Shown piece after piece: positions 1,139 to 12,186 of a DNA stretch of 12,437 nucleotides. The notes under the pieces were generated by a model. That model was not told where the DNA came from and searched no databases. It worked only from the letters and a program-made list of their open reading frames with translations. Source of the stretch: a virus. Positions within the stretch are counted from its first letter, which is position 1. Every line of letters starts with the position of its first letter. The stretch lies in the UHGV virus genome UHGV-0044338. The stretch is one strand, 5' to 3'. The translations under genes and the position numbers were made by a program.

Positions 1139-1199
1139 CTTTACCCTCGCTTATCCACATAACTTATTGATTACATTGATAACTAAAAAGATCGTCGAT

Positions 1200-1544
1200 T
1201 CAGAACTCTTCGATGTTCCAGCCACCACCTGCTTTCTTTGGTTTAACCGTTACCCCGATGATTCGGAACGGATACTGATCTGCGGCGACTTTGGTTTTCA
1301 CCCTGGCGTCGTCGGTCCAGAAACCTTTCACTTCGTGCAGTTCCATCTCGCCGGTGGCGAGCATCACAGCAAAATCGGGCGTATAGAACGTGTTGTCAGC
1401 TAACCGCAGCTTGATACCCTCGAATCGATACCAGGCGATTTCCCCTGCACGTTTACGCTGCTCAAGGTGCTGGCAATACGCAGATTCTGTTTTGTTCATC
1501 TGGCCTGTTTTGAGCCGACCAAGAGCCTGTATCTGTTTTCTCAT
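1200..1544 (-). CDS. Putative PD-(D/E)xK-type nuclease (VRR-NUC-like) of the nin-like region
   Basis: 114-aa ORF containing YTPDF ... ELHEVKG, resembling a PD-(D/E)xK nuclease core. ATG start with AAGGGG SD. Assignment is motif-based only. Confidence 0.5.
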   Translation of the reverse strand: MRKQIQALGRLKTGQMNKTESAYCQHLEQRKRAGEIAWYRFEGIKLRLADNTFYTPDFAVMLATGEMELHEVKGFWTDDARVKTKVAADQYPFRIIGVTVKPKKAGGGWNIEEF

Positions 1545-1547
1545 GAT

Positions 1548-1624
1548 TTACCCCTTAGGTAATTAAAAACCACATAAGACATGAAATCAATAGACATTAG
1601 AACATTTTATTACCCATCAGGTAA
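1548..1624 (-). promoter_or_regulatory. Sigma70-type promoter (TTGATT-17-TTTAAT on minus strand) flanked by two TTACC-N5-GGTAA operator palindromes; drives the nuclease/nin-like genes
   Basis: Perfect palindromes TTACCccttaGGTAA (1548-1562) and TTACCcatcaGGTAA (1610-1624), centres 62 bp apart. -35 is revcomp of 1585-1590 and -10 is revcomp of 1562-1567; the -10 hexamer shares its last base with the downstream operator. Confidence 0.55.
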
Positions 1625-1633
1625 TCACGTGGG

Positions 1634-1660
1634 CGTAAAAAAATGCGCTATCGCGCTGGT
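1634..1660 (-). terminator. Possible weak intrinsic terminator after the P-like gene
   Basis: Minus-strand RNA reads GCGC-gata-GCGC followed by TTTTTTT. Only a 4-bp GC stem, so weak. Confidence 0.3.
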
Positions 1661-1661
1661 A

Positions 1662-2438
1662 TTACTTGATAAATCCTGCCGCCTTTCCCCGCCTGTATTC
1701 CTCCATCAGCCACTGCGCCGGTGTTATTCCCCCAAGGGTGGCAGCGTTAGGCATACACCCGAAACTTCGCCCTGGTGGATGGTAAACGTCTCTCCCTGTG
1801 TCCGGAGGCGTACTCATGGGTTCTGGCTTTGCCTGTATGCTGATCACCGGATCGGGTATCTGCTGTCCGGAAGCCACCTTTTTCGCCCAATCATCGAGCA
1901 ACCTGCGCGCGTGTTTCTCAACCTCAATCTCGCTAAGCTGGCGCTGATACATTGCACGGCGGGTATCACATACGACCCAGTACATAACCGGATGTCGCCA
2001 CGGGAATCTTTCGGGACCACCAGGATATAAACTTTTTTCCTTGCTGTACCGGTGAAACTCCGCCATCACATCGTCAATGGTGACGCCAAGAACCATCTTG
2101 CTGTCTTTGCACCACTTGATGAATTGCCCAGGCGACGGCCAGAACGGAGATTCACTGGCGCGGGCGTGGCGCATACCAGCGTTAACCTGTTCCATTGTTG
2201 TGATCCCATTCTCCAGAAAGGCAAGCATCCATTGCTTACGGAATTCATTAAGTTTGTTCTGCTCCCTTATGGTCGAAACGCTTGCAGGAAATGCAGCCTG
2301 TAACTGGACAAATAGTTCATTGAAAATTCTAGCAACCTGCTCCTTTTTGCCATTGCTGTCACGCCGCTCTTCATGCACAGCAACACCATGCTCACGTAAG
2401 CGATCGTACTCATTGAGAAGTTCTGGAGTTGATTTCAT
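1662..2438 (-). CDS. Replication protein P (lambda P-like DnaB helicase loader)
   Basis: 258-aa ORF closely resembling lambda P as I recall it, including the block WMLAFLENGITTMEQVNAGMRHAR and PFWPSPGQFIKWC. SD GAAGGGG upstream of ATG; 5' end overlaps the 3' end of the upstream initiator gene, as for lambda O-P. Confidence 0.85.
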   Translation of the reverse strand: MKSTPELLNEYDRLREHGVAVHEERRDSNGKKEQVARIFNELFVQLQAAFPASVSTIREQNKLNEFRKQWMLAFLENGITTMEQVNAGMRHARASESPFWPSPGQFIKWCKDSKMVLGVTIDDVMAEFHRYSKEKSLYPGGPERFPWRHPVMYWVVCDTRRAMYQRQLSEIEVEKHARRLLDDWAKKVASGQQIPDPVISIQAKPEPMSTPPDTGRDVYHPPGRSFGCMPNAATLGGITPAQWLMEEYRRGKAAGFIK

Positions 2439-3240
2439 CCCACACCCCTTCTATCCAGTCAGTGTTATTCCAGTCAAGCTCATCGCTTTTCCCGGCGTTT
2501 TTTGATTTTCCCCTGATATGATTTACGTGCCTGGCGAATTTTTGTTCCCACTGAACCTGCGTGAACACTTTGCCCTCAGCCATCAAGTAATCCCGGAATG
2601 CAGCAAGTTCAGCAGGTGTAAATTCCGGTTCCGGCAGGGCCGTTCCCCACAGCGCAGCACGCCGTCGAAAATCCGGCGACGGATGCCAGCCATCGGTCAT
2701 CGGAAATTTCCCGATGGGTTCACTCAGGCCATCCAGAAATTCAGGTTCAGCCACCTGCAACGGCATACCGTTCGCTTCACTGGTCGGAGCACCATCGCGC
2801 ACGTGCGCTATGTGTGGGGTTTTATATATATCTTCCTCTTCCTCTTCCTCTGGTAACTCCTTTTGTAACGCTGTTGGCGTTACTTTTTGCGTTACTCGTT
2901 TTCGATGCTCTGCCACTCTTCTATTCGTAAGTGCACGTTTTTTCGATGATTCTCCATTATGTCGCTCAAAGTTTGGAAGGATTAGTTTGCCGTCATGATA
3001 AGCAAGCCATCCGACGCTAATGAGGGCGTCAGCAAATCCTGTAATAAAAGCGAGTCTATCAAGTACTCCTTTTGTAACGCTGCCAGCGTTACCGTCTATT
3101 GTTTGCTGGTCAGCCCATGCCCATATACGAACCAGCTTTCCAAGAACAGCATCTGGATCAATACCCAGAATTTCTGCTATCTGAAAAATTTCAGGTTTAT
3201 CAGGAGTGATAACTTCAACCTTAATCCAGCTGCTTGCCAT
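2410..3240 (-). CDS. Replication initiator / replisome organiser with C-terminal DnaT-like (primosomal protein I) domain
   Basis: N-terminus MASSWIKVEV...LVRIWAWADQQ resembles phage replisome-organiser N-domains; acidic EEEEEED linker; C-terminus WHPSPDFRRRAALWGTALPEPEFTPAELAAFRDYLMAEGKVFTQVQWEQKFARH closely matches the E. coli DnaT C-terminal region as recalled. Start placed at ATG 3240-3238 (strong GAGGGG SD) rather than the ORF-track start at 3258. Confidence 0.8.
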   Translation of the reverse strand: MASSWIKVEVITPDKPEIFQIAEILGIDPDAVLGKLVRIWAWADQQTIDGNAGSVTKGVLDRLAFITGFADALISVGWLAYHDGKLILPNFERHNGESSKKRALTNRRVAEHRKRVTQKVTPTALQKELPEEEEEEDIYKTPHIAHVRDGAPTSEANGMPLQVAEPEFLDGLSEPIGKFPMTDGWHPSPDFRRRAALWGTALPEPEFTPAELAAFRDYLMAEGKVFTQVQWEQKFARHVNHIRGKSKNAGKSDELDWNNTDWIEGVWDEINSRTSQ

Positions 3241-3433
3241 AGGTTTCCCCTCTTGCACTCTTTAGTGCACAAGCAAATTCATTACGATGGCGGTTGGCGC
3301 TATTCATTGCACATTCAACACATGTTCCGTTCAGAACATACCTTTCAGAGAGATGGCCGTGACGGCACCGCTTTCCTGTGAAATAGCGATTTAACCCGGC
3401 TTTTGCGGCCTCCATTCTGGTTACTATCTTCAA
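3221..3433 (-). CDS. Small putative zinc-binding protein (CxxxH ... CxxC), function unknown; sits where cII lies in lambda
   Basis: 70-aa ORF with CRHGHLSERYVLNGTCVEC. The track start is TTG at 3433; an alternative ATG is at 3415-3413. Start uncertain. Confidence 0.4.
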   Translation of the reverse strand: MKIVTRMEAAKAGLNRYFTGKRCRHGHLSERYVLNGTCVECAMNSANRHRNEFACALKSARGETYGKQLD

Positions 3434-3545
3434 TTTTTCCGCCCCTTTTTGTTATTGATATTGGCTATTTTGCACAATTGGAAAATTTGATCAACCAGAT
3501 TTGGTTTTTTATTACCTTTGAGGTACGAATAGATATGAAAAGAAA

Positions 3546-3620
3546 CCCCCGGGGGGGGGGGGCGGGGGGGGGGGGGGGGGNNNNNNNNNNAAAAAAAAAA
3601 AAACCCCCGGGGGGGGGGGG
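3546..3620. other. Assembly artefact / unresolved gap (poly-C, poly-G, N10, poly-A, poly-C, poly-G)
   Basis: Mirrored homopolymer blocks around ten Ns. Not a biological repeat; true sequence here is unknown. Confidence 0.9.
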
Positions 3621-3645
3621 TTCTACAGAGGGTTGTAGCTGGATA

Positions 3646-3876
3646 TCATGAGTAGAAGAAGTATGCCAGTTCTGCTTTTGAGCGCAGCCATTGTCTTGTT
3701 TTACAGGCTTTAAAAAGCCCATTCATCAATACTTTACCTGGCATTTTGCGCTTACCTGTTAAGTGAGTCTGGATATAGTGACTCGTCGTTCCGGCTTCCT
3801 GTGCGAAGGCTTCACGCTCATCCGGAGTAAGTGCAAGCCAGTGCTTTTTGAAATCGAAATGTCCGTTATCGCTCAT
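3646..3876 (-). CDS. Cro-like HTH regulator (YdaS/Cro type), first gene of the leftward operon
   Basis: 76-aa ORF with HTH-like segment EREAFAQEAGTTSHYIQTHLTGKR, divergent from the repressor gene across an operator-rich intergenic region, same strand as the replication genes. Confidence 0.7.
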   Translation of the reverse strand: MSDNGHFDFKKHWLALTPDEREAFAQEAGTTSHYIQTHLTGKRKMPGKVLMNGLFKACKTRQWLRSKAELAYFFYS

Positions 3877-3901
3877 AGCTATTGCCTGATATTTATTTCA
3901 G

Positions 3902-3983
3902 ATAATAAATATTCACCCATAAGGTAACAAAAATCAAGGATAGTTACCCATGAGGTGCATTTACCTGTTGGGTAATATTGCTT
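3902..3983. promoter_or_regulatory. Divergent immunity control region with three operator-like sites and candidate divergent promoters
   Basis: Sites TcACCcataaGGTAA (3913-3927), TTACCcatgaGGTgc (3944-3958) and perfect TTACCtgttgGGTAA (3961-3975). Candidate leftward promoter TTGTTA-17-TATTAT (revcomp of 3925-3930 and 3902-3907) overlaps the first site. Candidate rightward -35 TTGCTT (3978-3983) lies 3 bp past the third site, but its -10 is poor. Confidence 0.55.
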
Positions 3984-4030
3984 TAAATTGAATCATCTTC
4001 TGATTCAGATATGAGGCGATTTTCCAGAAA

Positions 4031-4615
4031 ATGAAAAGTATCCAGGACGTCCGCAGGCAAAATCTCAACGACTTGATCGACCGTGAATTCAATGGTGTTC
4101 AGACGCGGATGGCAGAAAAACTTGGAACTCAGGCAAATCTGGTAAACCGCTGGGCTCTTGGCAAAAAGGTTATCGGCGACCAGGTTGCGCGAAAAATTGA
4201 AGCTGCCGCCAATAAACCCCGTAACTGGCTTGATATCGATCGCTCGCTTTCTCAGGAGGGGTTTCAGCCTGTCGGCCCAAGCGACATTGGTCAGCTGGCG
4301 GCTCACAACCTGGAACGCTGGATGAGCGAAAGCCGCGACCTTTCAACTCAGGGAAAACTTCACCGCGCATCCGGCGTCGCCCAGGTGACAATCAGCCGCC
4401 TGTTAAACAATGAGGTCAGCGTTTCCATTTCCACCCTGGAGAATGTTGCATCCGCATTCGGGCGTCACGGCTATGAATTACTGATTCACCCGCACGACCC
4501 TGCGACTATCAACTATGACCGCTCGCGCTACGCATTGTTACCCGAAACAGAGAAGGCAAAGATCGAAAGTTACATTGAATTTGTCATCAGCCAGAACGAA
4601 AAAAACAAACAATAA
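4031..4615 (+). CDS. Prophage repressor (CI-like) with two XRE-type HTH motifs and no S24/LexA-type peptidase domain
   Basis: 194-aa ORF. HTH-like segments QTRMAEKLGTQANLVNRWALGKK (N-terminal) and LHRASGVAQVTISRLLNNEVSVSISTLENVA (central). No G-S-M / Ser-Lys dyad C-terminal domain visible. Divergent from the cro-like gene and followed by a strong terminator. Confidence 0.7.
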   Translation: MKSIQDVRRQNLNDLIDREFNGVQTRMAEKLGTQANLVNRWALGKKVIGDQVARKIEAAANKPRNWLDIDRSLSQEGFQPVGPSDIGQLAAHNLERWMSESRDLSTQGKLHRASGVAQVTISRLLNNEVSVSISTLENVASAFGRHGYELLIHPHDPATINYDRSRYALLPETEKAKIESYIEFVISQNEKNKQ

Positions 4616-4636
4616 AATCATATTTTTCAGTAAGTA

Positions 4637-4661
4637 AGCCGCCTTCTGGCGGCTTTTTTAT
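4637..4661 (+). terminator. Rho-independent terminator downstream of the repressor gene
   Basis: AGCCGCC-ttct-GGCGGCT (7-bp stem) followed by TTTTTTATT. Confidence 0.8.
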
Positions 4662-4671
4662 TGCCTGTGCG

Positions 4672-4750
4672 ATTACCTAATGGGTAATTTTTTTAACTCA
4701 TATCTATTGACATCAAACCAAATACGCATAATTATTACCTCAACGGTAAC
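4672..4750 (+). promoter_or_regulatory. pL-like early promoter (TTGACA-17-AATTAT) flanked by two TTACC-N5-GGTAA operator palindromes
   Basis: Perfect consensus -35 TTGACA (4707-4712) with -10 candidate 4730-4735. Perfect palindromes ATTACCtaatgGGTAAT (4672-4688) and TTACCtcaacGGTAA (4735-4749), centres 62 bp apart; the -10 hexamer shares its last base with the downstream operator. Confidence 0.6.
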
Positions 4751-4768
4751 AGACCGAGGTAACAAGTT

Positions 4769-4921
4769 ATGCAGTGGAAAATCATCAACGGTTGGTACTG
4801 CGTTACTGCATGCGGATTCATGAGCTGGAAGTTCCGCACCTTACAGGAAGGCATCAAGTGGGCTTTCGTCAGCAAAGAAGCTCGCGATGTGGCCAACGAT
4901 AACGAGATATGGGAGGGCTGA
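4769..4921 (+). CDS. Small Trp-rich protein (50 aa), first ORF after the pL-like promoter
   Basis: ATG 4769 with SD GAGGT 8 nt upstream; MQWKIINGWYCVTACGFMSWKFRTLQEGIKWAFVSKEARDVANDNEIWEG; stop 4919-4921. Below the ORF-track size cutoff. Confidence 0.35.
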   Translation: MQWKIINGWYCVTACGFMSWKFRTLQEGIKWAFVSKEARDVANDNEIWEG

Positions 4922-4923
4922 TA

Positions 4924-5223
4924 ATGAACGTTAATCAGCAGAAAAATCTTCAAAAAATCATGCTGGCATTCGACAAGGACTACCGCCTGTCAGAACAGCT
5001 ATATGACCGACAAGTTGAACTGATTGAGAGCATCCGACTTCATCAACTGTCCTCAACTTTCGACGTTGTAACAGGCAAAGGCGTTCGTCAGGAAGTGCTG
5101 GAAGCTGCTAAAGACAGCCCTGAGTTCGAAGAACTGATGGATGCCTACCGGCGCGAGGCAATGGCGATTATCGCCCGCTGGGATCTGGCGGATCAGCTTG
5201 ATGGGCAGAGGGACGCGGCATGA
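4924..5223 (+). CDS. Hypothetical early protein (99 aa)
   Basis: ATG 4924 preceded by SD GGGAGGG with 6-nt spacer (preferred over the track start at 4909, which lies inside the preceding small ORF). Stop overlaps the start of the exonuclease gene (ATGA). Confidence 0.55.
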   Translation: MNVNQQKNLQKIMLAFDKDYRLSEQLYDRQVELIESIRLHQLSSTFDVVTGKGVRQEVLEAAKDSPEFEELMDAYRREAMAIIARWDLADQLDGQRDAA

Positions 5224-7558: not shown

Positions 7559-7858
7559 GTGAGAAAGTTAAGCCGACTTGAAAAATATCACATGAACAAG
7601 GTTTCAATGCGCAGTCCGTCAAAGATTGTCGCCGTTACTCCTGCGGCGATAGAGATCGAAAAACGCGCGATTGAAAGAGAGAAAAAAGGGCAGTTCCGCA
7701 TTGCCGCCCACCTTTGGCTTCAGTGTATGGATGTTGCTTCTGGTGATGTTGAGCGTGCAAGGATCGCGGTTCGCAGGGACCAATGTATCACAAAAGGTAA
7801 CGGCCTTCGCCGTGGCGACTATAGCGGTATAGGATGTTGCGGGGTAGTTTATGACTAA
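7559..7858 (+). CDS. Hypothetical protein; start uncertain (GTG 7559, ATG 7592 or ATG 7604)
   Basis: ORF whose stop overlaps the start of the MT-A70 methyltransferase gene by 8 nt. No recognisable motif. Confidence 0.45.
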   Translation: MRKLSRLEKYHMNKVSMRSPSKIVAVTPAAIEIEKRAIEREKKGQFRIAAHLWLQCMDVASGDVERARIAVRRDQCITKGNGLRRGDYSGIGCCGVVYD

Positions 7859-8501
7859 GAAATACACACTAATCTATGCAGATCCACCCTGGGTATACCG
7901 GGACAAAGCCGCAGATGGTAATCGCGGTGCCGGTTTTAAATATCCGGTTATGAGTGTGATGGATATCTGCCGCCTTCCTGTGTGGGATTTGGCCGATGAA
8001 AACTGTCTGTTGGCAATGTGGTGGGTGCCAACACAACCACTCGAAGCGCTAAAAGTTGTTGAAGCCTGGGGATTCCGTCTGATGACCATGAAGGGCTTCA
8101 CGTGGATAAAATGTGGTAGTCGACAACCAGATAAACTGGTTATGGGTATGGGACACATGACTCGCGCCAATAGTGAAGATTGCCTGTTTGCAGTAAAGGG
8201 AAAACTACCTCCGCGCATTAATGCAGGGATCGTTCAGTCATTTACCGCACCGCGGCTTGAGCATTCAAGAAAACCAGATGTCGTTCGTGAAAAACTTGTG
8301 CAATTGTTAGGCGATGTTTCTCGCATTGAACTGTTCGCCCGCCAGTCGTCTCATGGCTTCGATGTTTGGGGTAATCAGTGCAAAGACCCGGCGGTGCAAC
8401 TACACCCAGGATACGCGTTGGATATTGGCGGATTAACAAATGCATTCAGCAATTCTCCGCTTTCACCAACAGACAACCAAGGCCGGGAGCGTGCAGCATG
8501 A
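7851..8501 (+). CDS. MT-A70-family DNA N6-adenine methyltransferase (orphan, phage-type)
   Basis: 216-aa ORF with LIYADPPW catalytic motif near the N-terminus and the later ELFAR ... DVWGN block typical of MT-A70 enzymes. Confidence 0.8.
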
Positions 8502-9157
8502 ACCTATATCAACGCATCAATGGCGCTGACTGGTGCAATATCTTCGTCGTCGGCGATCTGCATGGGTGCTACACGCTGCTGATGAACGAACTCGACAAAG
8601 TTTCATTCGACCCGGCGCGCGATTTGCTTATTTCCGTTGGTGACCTTGTTGACCGCGGCGCTGAAAACGTCGAATGCCTAGATTTGATTACTATGCCGTG
8701 GTTCCGAGCTGTTCGTGGCAACCATGAGCAGATGATGCTGGATGCACTGGTCAACGGCGGAAATTTCGGACATTGGATGTCAAACGGCGGTGGATGGTGG
8801 CACCAACTTGATTCTGAGCAGGATGTGCAACTCAAATACCTTCTGCCAAAGATTACCAACCTCCCGATGATTATCGAACTGGTTACCGGCAATAAGAAGG
8901 TCGTCATCTGCCACGCAGACTACCCGCACAACGAATACGCATTCAATAAGCCAGTACCAGAAGAAATGGTGATATGGAATCGTGAGCGGGTTAGCGACGC
9001 GCAGGACGGTATTGTCTCGGAGATAACCGGTGCCGATTTGTTCATCTTCGGTCATACGCCAGCACATCACCCACTGGTGTATGCAAACCAGATGTACATC
9101 GACACAGGGGCAGTGTTCTGCGGAAATCTGACGCTTACCAAAGTCCAAGAAAGATAG
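8498..9157 (+). CDS. Serine/threonine protein phosphatase, lambda PPase-like (calcineurin-type metallophosphoesterase)
   Basis: Metallophosphatase motifs GDLHG, GDLVDRG and GNHE; overall resemblance to lambda ORF221 phosphatase as recalled. Start at ATG 8498 ([12 protein letters not shown]), overlapping the methyltransferase stop (ATGA); SD GGGAG upstream. Confidence 0.85.
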
Positions 9158-10444: not shown

Positions 10445-10480
10445 GACGGTATGAGAGTATACCTTTAAGGTAATACCGTC
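10445..10480. other. Nested inverted repeats in the int-guaA spacer; candidate attachment-site or recombinase-binding region
   Basis: GACGGTA (10445-10451) and TACCGTC (10474-10480) flank TATACCtttaaGGTAAT (10458-10474). No tRNA gene is present here. Confidence 0.25.
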
Positions 10481-10560: not shown

Positions 10561-10608
10561 TTAAATTAGTATCTGAATAGGAATGAGTTGCTATGAGTTA
10601 GCTGTTAA

Positions 10609-12186
10609 TCATTCCCACTCAATAGTCGCTGGCGGCTTGCCGCTGATGTCATACACCACGCGGGAAATACCGTTCACTTCATTGATAATACGGTTGGAAA
10701 CGCGGCCGAGGAAGTCGTACGGCAGATGTGCCCAGTGTGCGGTCATAAAGTCGATGGTTTCGACAGCACGCAGAGAGACAACCCAGTCATACTTACGACC
10801 ATCGCCCATTACGCCAACGGAACGTACTGGCAGGAAGACGGTGAACGCCTGGCTGACTTTGTCGTACAGGTCCGCTTTACGCAGTTCTTCAATGAAGATG
10901 GCGTCAGCACGGCGCAGCAGGTCACAATACTCTTTCTTCACTTCTCCCAGAACACGAACGCCAAGGCCTGGTCCCGGGAACGGGTGACGGTACAACATGT
11001 CATACGGTAGGCCCAGCTCCAGACCAATCTTACGCACTTCGTCTTTGAACAGCTCTTTCAGCGGTTCAACCAGGCCCATCTTCATCTCTTTCGGCAGGCC
11101 ACCCACGTTGTGGTGAGATTTGATGACGTGTGCTTTACCGGTTGCAGAAGCAGCAGATTCGATAACGTCAGGGTAGATGGTGCCCTGCGCCAGCCACTTC
11201 ACGTCTTCCAGTTTCAGCGCTTCTTCATCGAATACTTCAACGAAAACGCGACCGATAATTTTACGTTTTGCTTCCGGATCGTTTTCGCCAGCCAGCGCTG
11301 ACAAGAAGCGATCTTCTGCCGGTACGTGAACAATGTTCAGACCAAAGTGATCGCCAAACATATCCAGAACCTGCTCTGCTTCGTTGAGACGCAGCAGGCC
11401 GTTGTCGACGAATACGCAAGTCAGGTTTTTACCGATAGCGCGGTGCAACAGCATTGCGGTAACGGAGGAATCCACGCCACCAGAGAGGCCGAGGATGACT
11501 TTATCGTCGCCCACTTGCTCGCGGATGCGGGCTACAGCGTCGTCGATAATTTTCGCTGGCGTCCACAGGGCTTCACACTGGCAGATATCACGCACAAAAC
11601 GCTCCAGCATGCGCATACCCTGGCGGGTGTGAGTCACTTCCGGGTGGAACTGTACGCCATAGAAGCGTTTTTCTTCGTTGGCCATGATGGCAAACGGGCA
11701 GCTTTCGGTGCTGGCTACGGTGACGAAGTCGGACGGGATAGCGGTAACTTTATCGCCGTGGCTCATCCAGACGTCCAGCAGCGGTTTACCATCTGCGGTC
11801 AGCGCATCTTCGATACCGCGAACCAGTGCGCTGTCGTTTACGACTTCAACCTGCGCGTAGCCAAATTCACGTTCGTTAGAGGCTTCAACGTGACCGCCCA
11901 ACTGCATTGCCATGGTCTGCATGCCATAGCAAACGCCGAATACCGGTACGCCTGCTTCAAAGACATACTGCGGCGCACGCGGGCTGTTTTCTTCGGTGGT
12001 GCTTTCCGGGCCGCCGGAAAGAATAATGCCGCTTGGATTGAAGTCACGAATTTGTGCTTCTGTCACATCCCACGCCCACAGTTCGCAGTAAACACCCAGC
12101 TCACGCACGCGGCGCGCAACTAGTTGAGTGTACTGAGAACCGAAGTCCAGAATGAGGATGCGATGCTTATGAATGTTTTCCGTCAT
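10609..12186 (-). CDS. guaA: GMP synthase (glutamine-hydrolysing)
   Basis: 525-aa ORF; N-terminal glutamine amidotransferase domain and ATP-pyrophosphatase motif SGGVDSS; matches E. coli GuaA as recalled along its full length. Confidence 0.97.

Follow-up and report, generated by a model that had tools for sequence, protein, structure and literature searches.

Probable palindromic repressor sites in an epsilon15/phiV10-like prophage: a predicted operator family with one two-site arrangement at two promoters

Introduction

Does a short palindrome that recurs between the genes of a prophage serve a single repressor, and which promoters would come under its control? This question is raised by a stretch of 12,437 nucleotides from the virus genome UHGV-0044338 (hereafter the window), in which the 15-bp sequence TTACCNNNNNGGTAA (TTACC-N5-GGTAA) is found in several copies. 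The original prediction, made from the letters of the window alone, was that two pairs of copies share one geometry at two promoters and that a single repressor controls the two corresponding operons. As judged from its gene order and from the attachment (att) core at guaA, the window is part of an epsilon15/phiV10-like (Uetakevirus) prophage at the guaA 3′ end.

In lambda, CI acts at a right operator (OR) of three sites and at a left operator (OL), with divergent repressor and cro genes. C1 of phage P1 and gp71 of mycobacteriophage L5 use many dispersed operators placed before many transcription units, and P1 is induced through antirepressors. The P1 and L5 sites are asymmetric, the L5 stoperators are orientation-dependent and lie inside operons, and both proteins are unrelated to Rep, the repressor of phage SPC32H.

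Here, we propose, with a probability that we put at about 0.85, that the palindromes are operators of the prophage's own repressor, which would belong to the family of SPC32H Rep and epsilon15 gp38.

Results

Five intergenic palindromes and a repeated geometry

An exact pattern search returned five perfect copies of TTACC-N5-GGTAA, as predicted, at 1548-1562, 1610-1624, 3961-3975, 4673-4687 and 4735-4749, while 200 dinucleotide-preserving shuffles of the window and 67 kb of E. coli host DNA contained no perfect site. The host DNA thus lacks the comparable motif density that would have spoken against the original prediction. All five (5/5) lie between open reading frames (ORFs), which again agrees with the prediction; by our tally of ORFs, ~10.6% of the window is intergenic.

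Two pairs of sites, one at a rightward promoter that resembles the left promoter (PL) of lambda and one at 1548/1610 (hereafter the remote pair), are each 62 bp apart from centre to centre. The distal site of PL has its last base at 4687 and is followed by 19 nt, the -35 hexamer TTGACA (4707-4712), 17 nt and the -10 hexamer AATTAT (4730-4735), whose final T at 4735 is the first base of the proximal operator. On the minus strand, the remote pair repeats this layout: site 1610-1624, 19 nt, TTGATT, 17 nt and TTTAAT (reverse complements of 1585-1590 and 1562-1567), the last T of this -10 being the first base of site 1548-1562. The duplicated geometry that had been described (62 bp between centres, 19 bp to the -35 and a second site starting at the last -10 base) is therefore matched base by base at both promoters, and a promoter scan also calls the rightward PL-like promoter at TTGACA 4707-4712.

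A mismatch-tolerant scan added two near-sites at OR, 3913-3927 (one mismatch, TCACC) and 3944-3958 (two mismatches), and two further sites with one mismatch each, at 3512-3526 and 10459-10473. In relatives, these near-sites are found again at equivalent relative positions; the other matches with at most two mismatches (2987, 3752 and 8871) fit chance, for which 3.7 are expected. Counting the two degenerate sites, the sequence of OR is that of a three-site operator.

The repressor and its divergent control region

The candidate binding protein is encoded between OR and PL. In this repressor of 194 amino acids (aa), an N-terminal helix-turn-helix (HTH) domain for DNA binding is followed by an HTH-like domain in the middle and by an oligomerisation region at the C-terminus; a Pfam search at E<=0.01 gave no Peptidase_S24 match. 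It is 42% identical to epsilon15 gp38 over its full length (BLASTP, E=2e-54), and phmmer aligns its residues 1-190 with residues 2-197 of PDB 5D50_A, the chain of SPC32H Rep (E=4.1e-42). Within the N-terminal HTH segment, N36, L37, R40 and W41 are invariant in 17 homologues. In the sequence alignment, the invariant F184 falls on Phe190 of Rep and Y181 on Phe187, both named tetramer-interface residues of Rep (PMC9986798). The protein thus appears to have the domain plan of SPC32H Rep, with an N-terminal HTH, a middle dimerisation domain, a C-terminal segment for tetramerisation and antirepressor binding, and no autocleavage domain.

Rep is reported to act on palindromic DNA as a tetramer, its DNA-binding domains pairing from one dimer to the other, and a tetrameric antirepressor inactivates it (PMC9638917). 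The fold of its C-terminal tetramerisation region is similar to that of Rco, a repressor that loops DNA, and the mechanism by which Rep represses is described as "not extensively characterized" (PMC9986798). In phage vB_EcoP_ZX5 (hereafter ZX5), which shares 98% nucleotide identity with the window over 1400-5000, repressor gene included, overexpression of the repressor abolished free phage and lowered holin and endolysin transcripts by >99.9% (PMC9782041).

The implied novelty of the operator family did not hold. The epsilon15 record (AY150271.2) carries seven features labelled "protein_bind: repressor, lysogeny", all of the form (A)TTACC-N5-GGTAA(T), among them both PL sites and one before the nuclease gene, so the same palindrome is already recorded as a repressor site for the type phage. 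This annotation is confined to strict 17-bp palindromes, so that neither the OR sites nor the proximal member of the remote pair are listed, and the record does not show the two-site design in duplicate. Homologues and annotation together point to the repressor as the protein that would bind the sites.

To follow the sites among relatives, we used two sets of loci. The first holds 90 sequences, namely the window, epsilon15, ZX5 and phiV10 (L001, L002 and L003, respectively, for the last three), six genome loci and 80 viral contigs, most of them with window-type repressors. The genome loci come from Superficieibacter, Ca. Erwinia, Pseudocitrobacter, Pseudescherichia, Kluyvera and one contig labelled Pseudomonas, with repressors 52-75% identical to that of the window; the scan of the genome collection contributed these six loci only, and the viral scan with alignment near-identical repressors only. 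The second set adds another 80 loci, obtained in a scan with the epsilon15 protein, whose repressors are of the epsilon15 type or of the about 65% type. Sites and spacing are retained in ~150 related loci, whose repressors are 42-100% identical.

At OR, the repressor-proximal site stands at ~-70 from the repressor start in 85/90 loci of the first set and between -66 and -71 in the remaining five. The middle site has a perfect equivalent in epsilon15 (33358) and one with a single mismatch in L005. The TCACC site recurs at ~-118 in L004-L008; at the matching place in the OR of epsilon15, 33388, there is likewise a TCACC site. A distance of 31 bp, about 3 turns, separates the two outer-spaced OR sites. 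The promoter scan places a leftward promoter here on the minus strand (TTGTTA 3930-3925, TATTAT 3907-3902); for the repressor promoter, the search at OR gave only the -10-like hexamer TAATAT and no convincing -35. Further on, the one-mismatch site 3512-3526 is kept in ZX5 (14207) and phiV10 (33112) and may mark a single-operator promoter for the replication genes.

The divergent gene encodes a Cro-like protein of 76 aa, and the palindromes might be mainly its targets, or be shared by both regulators as in lambda; the pairs at PL and at the resolvase promoter would then serve the regulator of the lytic phase. The PHROG family of this protein is annotated as a transcriptional repressor, and it is 76% identical to epsilon15 gp39 against 42% between the two repressors, with the same half-site in both phages. 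However, Pfam recognises no HTH family in it, the epsilon15 record credits the sites to the repressor, and it is the N-terminal HTH segment of the repressor that is invariant across the family. Since a sharing of sites is compatible with repressor binding, the Cro reading would be an addition more than a replacement, and we consider it possible although on the unlikely side.

Conservation and variation of the sites

Among relatives, the PL-like promoter is nearly invariant, its proximal operator is retained at a fixed distance from the -35, and the ribosome-binding site GAGGTAA of the first PL gene is conserved in most. In the first five other-genera loci, the PL pair lies at +61 to +71 and +123 to +133 from the repressor end, and the OR sites at ~-70 and ~-118 (TCACC). 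PL pairs at +61/+123 and an OR site at -70 are also the pattern of the window-type and epsilon15-type sets. The remote pair keeps its 62 bp in almost every locus of the first set that covers it, although it lies anywhere from -2279 to -2723 relative to the repressor gene there, and in the second set wherever it is found; among the six other-genera loci, the spacing is 62 bp in 4/6 and 18 bp in 2/6. The PL pair is 61-64 bp apart in the second set, and this variation is confined to the T-run directly after the distal operator, the stretch from -35 to proximal operator being fixed. The expectation that sites and 62-bp spacing persist in relatives was thus confirmed for the remote pair, save in two distant relatives, and has to be relaxed to 61-64 bp at PL.

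We computed nucleotide diversity (pi) for the PL region over 82 loci whose repressors are at least 97% identical, and for the distal remote site over 76 loci. In the PL distal operator, pi is 0 at the ten half-site bases, 0.16-0.50 at positions 2-5 of N5 and 0.24-0.52 at the six bases outside the site (4666-4671); the mean at third codon positions of the repressor gene is 0.051. The N5 centre and outer flank of this operator have a mean pi of 0.38, ~seven-fold above synonymous sites (0.05). Likewise, site 1610-1624 has a pi of 0 in its half-sites and of ~0.5 at four of the five N5 positions. The half-sites are under purifying selection, and the sites are conserved together with the repressor family; frozen half-sites are the signature expected of a protein that would contact them. 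In both distal operators, centre plus outer flank (4666-4682 and 1615-1634) form a diversity hotspot (pi up to 0.5) in which the half-sites are invariant.

These data also bear on whether the palindromes are non-regulatory, as chance repeats, recombination junctions or recognition sites of a restriction-modification system or methylase. It is true that the hotspots around the distal sites lie beside exchange points of gene modules and that the prophage encodes DNA methyltransferases. Yet none appear in shuffles, their placement is intergenic save for one phiV10 site, their distances to promoter hexamers are fixed, their half-sites are frozen amid variable neighbours and their link to the repressor family extends across genera. 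Moreover, phages usually lose restriction sites and do not concentrate them at promoters. We give this explanation hardly any credence. That a single repressor uses one family of operators at two or more promoters, as predicted, is by contrast supported by repressor homology, the epsilon15 annotation, conservation and the frozen half-sites.

The operator centres differ between phage types. An A beside the half-site is found in 4% of sites of window-type phages (L010-L089) and in 41-56% of those of epsilon15-type phages (L092-L171), and G or C at the exact centre in 16% and 0%, respectively; these are counts of distinct sites, which are phylogenetically non-independent. They hint at a part played by the operator centre in recognition or in immunity specificity, despite a universal half-site.

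The remote cassette before the resolvase gene

The remote pair with its hexamers forms a cassette that is conserved as far as epsilon15. Upstream of it stands a terminator-like hairpin with a weak stem of only 4 bp, and the identical sequence is annotated in phiV10 as a putative terminator. Behind the cassette, the first gene encodes a DUF1064 protein in some phages and a RuvC-like protein in others with the same repressor; the cassette is therefore conserved independently of its cargo.

The mirrored promoter that had been predicted here stands as to hexamers and spacing. A clean sigma-70 promoter before the resolvase gene was considered and dropped: the promoter scan does not call it, because its -10, TTTAAT, lacks the A at position 2 (-11 A). 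An 18-nt register gives a better -10 in epsilon15-type phages (TAAATT), but not in the window (TTAATT).

The cassette also contains the motif TATGTGGTT, TATGTGG(T/A)T, which is absent from PL, is shared with late-gene regions and recurs only in intergenic DNA, oriented with the downstream genes. It is found in the resolvase cassette and before the gene that follows the resolvase gene (~1153-1161, minus strand), the tail-fibre gene, the gp3-like gene and the epsilon15 lysis genes, at positions 2469, 16157, 16572 and 22814 of ZX5 and 2990 and 24753 of epsilon15; the epsilon15 resolvase cassette (35955) has TTTGTGGTT at the position of the motif. TATGTGGTT may mark a second class of promoters, and the remote cassette probably starts a separate transcription unit of middle or late class. 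As a speculation, the PerC-like activator of the PL operon is a candidate partner of the cassette.

Could the distal sites, instead of being partners of the proximal ones, be roadblocks that stop read-through after weak terminators, like the "stoperators" of mycobacteriophage L5? Sites 4673, 1610 and 3512 and the terminase-proximal site of ZX5 do follow a terminator hairpin by 10-20 nt. However, they are symmetric and have no orientation, and a terminator followed by a promoter is an ordinary operon boundary. In addition, the distal site is exactly 19 nt from the -35 at both promoters, and 62 bp are kept at the remote locus (~150 loci), which suggests that the constraint is tied to the promoter. 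We regard the roadblock explanation as improbable.

Sites in complete phage genomes

In complete genomes of relatives, the predicted repressor sites extend well beyond PL, OR and the remote cassette. We counted 11 perfect sites in epsilon15, 10 in ZX5 and 8 in phiV10, where base composition predicts ~0.04 per 39-kb genome. According to the deposited annotations, 11/11, 10/10 and 7/8 of them are intergenic, the eighth phiV10 site lying inside the longer annotated start of the terminase gene; intergenic DNA is ~6.6% of the epsilon15 genome by our own tally. In ZX5, and by equivalence in epsilon15, the sites are at PL and OR, upstream of the resolvase, small terminase and gp3-like (head of the structural genes) genes, around the antirepressor gene and where the tail-fibre gene and the antirepressor-containing cluster diverge; in epsilon15, the region upstream of the lysis genes is a further location. 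These 8-11 sites stand ahead of most operons. The two operons of the original prediction were thus rightly named but understate the case, with a three-site OR in the window and the motif before most operons of relatives.

The annotated start of the small terminase gene varies among these genomes. In L090, the closest complete E. coli prophage, and in phiV10, the gene as annotated (15779-16456 and 41-715, respectively) engulfs two operator-like sites that lie upstream of it in ZX5 and epsilon15. These longer starts have probably been placed too far upstream.

The 12.4-kb window contains neither an antirepressor gene nor a LexA box, save for one loose, non-consensus match at 3886. In ZX5, a consensus LexA box, CTGTATATTTATACAG, is found at 2368-2383, 22 bp upstream of the gene cluster that contains the antirepressor gene, which was tested by overexpression (PMC9782041). 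A consensus box also stands just upstream of the gp19-like gene in epsilon15 (19841) and phiV10 (20822), and this gene heads the antirepressor-containing cluster in ZX5 and phiV10. The position of the box fits an SOS induction through the antirepressor.

At the other end of the window, the site at 10459-10473 lies ~49 bp upstream of the predicted start of the integrase gene (10410), and a conserved one-mismatch site precedes the integrase gene of relatives by ~45 bp. The same oriented ATACC mismatch is seen in ZX5, phiV10, epsilon15, L004, L006, L007 and L008, the last four being prophages of other genera. Through this possibly weak site, the repressor may control the integrase gene.

Setting of the window

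Region 1400-5000 is 97-98% identical in nucleotides to the podoviruses vB_EcoP_ZX5, HEMP4, TL-2011b and phiV10. This 3.6-kb region is present at a coverage of at least 80% in 113 of 5,426 complete E. coli genomes and partially in 783. phiV10, with only 62% query coverage, was considered as a different immunity type and ruled out: its repressor gene has the same length (194 aa) and its sites are the same, so the coverage gaps fall elsewhere in the query.

The att core ATTGAGTGGGAATGATT, a sequence taken from the ZX5 paper, where integration at the guaA 3′ end was shown (PMC9782041), is found at 10607-10623 and overlaps the end of guaA. From guaA, the gene order is att core, integrase, metallophosphatase, MT-A70 methylase, PerC-like activator, AlpA-like, RecT, YqaJ exonuclease, two small genes and PL; it continues with the repressor gene, OR, cro-like, a small gene, the DnaT-like and lambda-P-like replication genes, the second operator pair and DUF1064. 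In ZX5 and L090, a small DUF1382/hypothetical gene takes the place of the metallophosphatase gene, which is a difference in cargo. L090 also has an annotated tRNA-Arg gene (13193-13269) between its structural and terminase regions, a part that lies outside the window.

Between the cro-like gene and the next gene, positions 3545-3620 hold homopolymer runs of C and G, ten Ns and a stretch of poly-A/T; ZX5 has CCGCCATCCGGCGGTCTTTTC, an intrinsic terminator, at the equivalent position. This segment of the window is therefore an assembly or scaffolding artefact, from which several spurious terminator calls arise.

Table 1. Features of the window that bear on the predicted operators; promoters and starts are predictions.
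Feature	Position	Strand	Remarks
DUF1064 gene	1200..1544	-	ATG 1544-1542; annotated Holliday-junction resolvase; Pfam DUF1064, phrog_190
Remote proximal operator	1548..1562		Centre and right half give Shine-Dalgarno AAGGGG of DUF1064 gene
Remote promoter (putative)	1562..1590	-	TTGATT (1590-1585), 17 nt, TTTAAT (1567-1562); contains TATGTGGTT at 1576-1568
Remote distal operator	1610..1624		Perfect; leftward promoter, upstream of resolvase gene
Terminator-like hairpin	1637..1656	-	GCGC-GAUA-GCGC + U7; after lambda-P-like gene; RNA fold z = -2.5
One-mismatch site (GGTAC)	3512..3526		12 nt after terminator of cro-like gene; 17 nt before TTGATC hexamer
Cro-like gene, 76 aa	3646..3876	-	phrog_35 (transcriptional repressor); divergent from repressor gene
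Cro-proximal OR site	3913..3927		One mismatch (TCACC); overlaps -35 and spacer of leftward promoter
Middle OR site	3944..3958		Two mismatches (GGTGC); 17 bp from site 3961
Repressor-proximal OR site	3961..3975		Perfect; overlaps TAATAT -10-like hexamer 3973-3978
Repressor gene, 194 aa	4031..4615	+	Pfam HTH_3, weak YdaS-like HTH match, homology
Intrinsic terminator	4636..4662	+	After repressor gene; 8-bp stem, 6 GC pairs, T-run
PL distal operator	4673..4687		Perfect; centre ~-62 from predicted start
PL-like promoter	4707..4735	+	TTGACA-17 nt-AATTAT; 10/12 consensus matches (scan)
PL proximal operator	4735..4749		Perfect; covers predicted start (~4742, from the sequence)
Ribosome-binding site	4756..4762	+	GAGGTAA of first PL gene (ATG 4769); also isolated GGTAA half-site
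PerC-like activator gene	7559-7858		Within PL operon
Metallophosphatase gene	8378-9157		Calcineurin-like; between MT-A70 methylase and integrase genes
One-mismatch site (ATACC-N5-GGTAA)	10459..10473		Between integrase gene and att core

Discussion

We can propose the following mechanism for this prophage. In the lysogen, the repressor would bind the 15-17 bp palindrome (A)TTACC-N5-GGTAA(T), its invariant N-terminal HTH segment being the likely reader of the TTACC half-sites. At OR, the cro-proximal site would act over the -35 and spacer of the lytic promoter, and the repressor-proximal site over the likely repressor promoter. At PL and at the remote promoter, ~2.4 kb away, one operator would cover the -10 end and predicted start and the second would sit at ~-62, so that the promoter would be bracketed by two repressor units about six turns apart; since the proximal operators overlap the -10 and the predicted start, bound repressor would block RNA polymerase. 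The distances of 62 bp (62/10.5 = 5.9 turns) and of 31 bp at OR would be compatible with cooperative binding on the same face or with bridging by a tetramer. Induction would be expected to pass through a LexA-controlled antirepressor encoded outside the window, as in homologues and their annotation.

Several points weigh against this proposal or parts of it. If the remote cassette is to be an active promoter, its poor -10 is a difficulty, and the promoter scan passed it over; an activator might be required, or the sites might act on read-through transcripts. A strict phasing, and looping with it, is opposed by the PL spacing of 61-64 bp, which drifts through the T-run; helical phasing as a proof of looping, a point that we considered, fails at PL and is upheld at the remote pair. 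For a tetramer whose two pairs of dimerisation domains are reportedly ~100 Angstrom apart (PMC9986798), a 62-bp loop would also be very tight. Finally, the Cro-like protein is more conserved towards epsilon15 than the repressor (76% vs 42%) and may share the sites.

A wider reading would join these observations. The 62-bp bracket would let one Rep tetramer, or a pair of them, clamp each lytic promoter in a very small loop, the half-site would be universal with the variable centre and flank tuning affinity or immunity, and the TATGTGGTT class of promoters, possibly PerC-dependent, would place late genes under both repressor and activator. As a whole, we hold this reading to be doubtful.

Independently of the looping question, the window system is, by its sequence, a new example of a known repressor-operator family, since all the features compared agree: homology, domain plan, operator sequence and genome context. 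Indeed, SPC32H Rep and epsilon15 gp38 share with it full-length repressor homology, identical half-sites, the same genome order and integration at the guaA 3′ end. Like the window, epsilon15 combines an OR of three sites with one pair at PL and another before the resolvase gene, the sites of each pair being 62 bp apart. It differs by its repressor, 42% identical, by a third PL site that the window does not have and by its remote cassette gene, RuvC-like in place of DUF1064. Their operator centres also differ, the window type avoiding an A beside the half-site and tolerating a central G or C.

A three-site OR flanked by divergent repressor and cro genes, and the succession of repressor gene, terminator and PL with operators over the promoter, recall lambda. 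However, CI has a LexA-like S24 autocleavage domain, whereas the window repressor has none and its C-terminal half aligns to the oligomerisation region of SPC32H Rep. In the epsilon15 type, and unlike in lambda, operators are also found well outside the immunity region. With P1 and L5, the likeness lies in logic only, that of dispersed operators. In contrast to the L5 stoperators, the sites of the window type are perfect palindromes, intergenic save one phiV10 site (at a disputed terminase start) and placed beside promoter-like hexamers. Induction in the Rep family proceeds through an antirepressor, again unlike lambda (PMC9782041; PMC9638917).

Rco of the Bacillus plasmid pLS20 offers another comparison. 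It is a tetrameric HTH repressor with a p53-like tetramerisation domain, a fold type also found in SPC32H Rep, and it is reported to form a DNA loop between two operators that lie 75 bp apart on either side of its promoters (PMC9986798). This layout is similar to the 62-bp pairs, but Rco reads multiple direct repeats and not single palindromes, and it has no detectable sequence relationship with the Rep-family repressor outside the HTH.

Full-text searches of the literature, on the motif as well as on Uetakevirus repressors, yielded no account of operators in the E. coli phages, and the ZX5 paper defines none (PMC9782041). The prophage type is common in E. coli, and phiV10-like phages figure in the literature on phage engineering and detection. 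The operator map names the promoters that are predicted to be repressed, gives targets for gel-shift, chromatin immunoprecipitation (ChIP) and reporter experiments, and provides a rationale for virulent or tightly repressed derivatives. The conserved 62-bp bracket at two promoters also offers a DNA layout for testing the tetramer structure and its proposed role in looping. Altogether, the added value for the field is modest but real.

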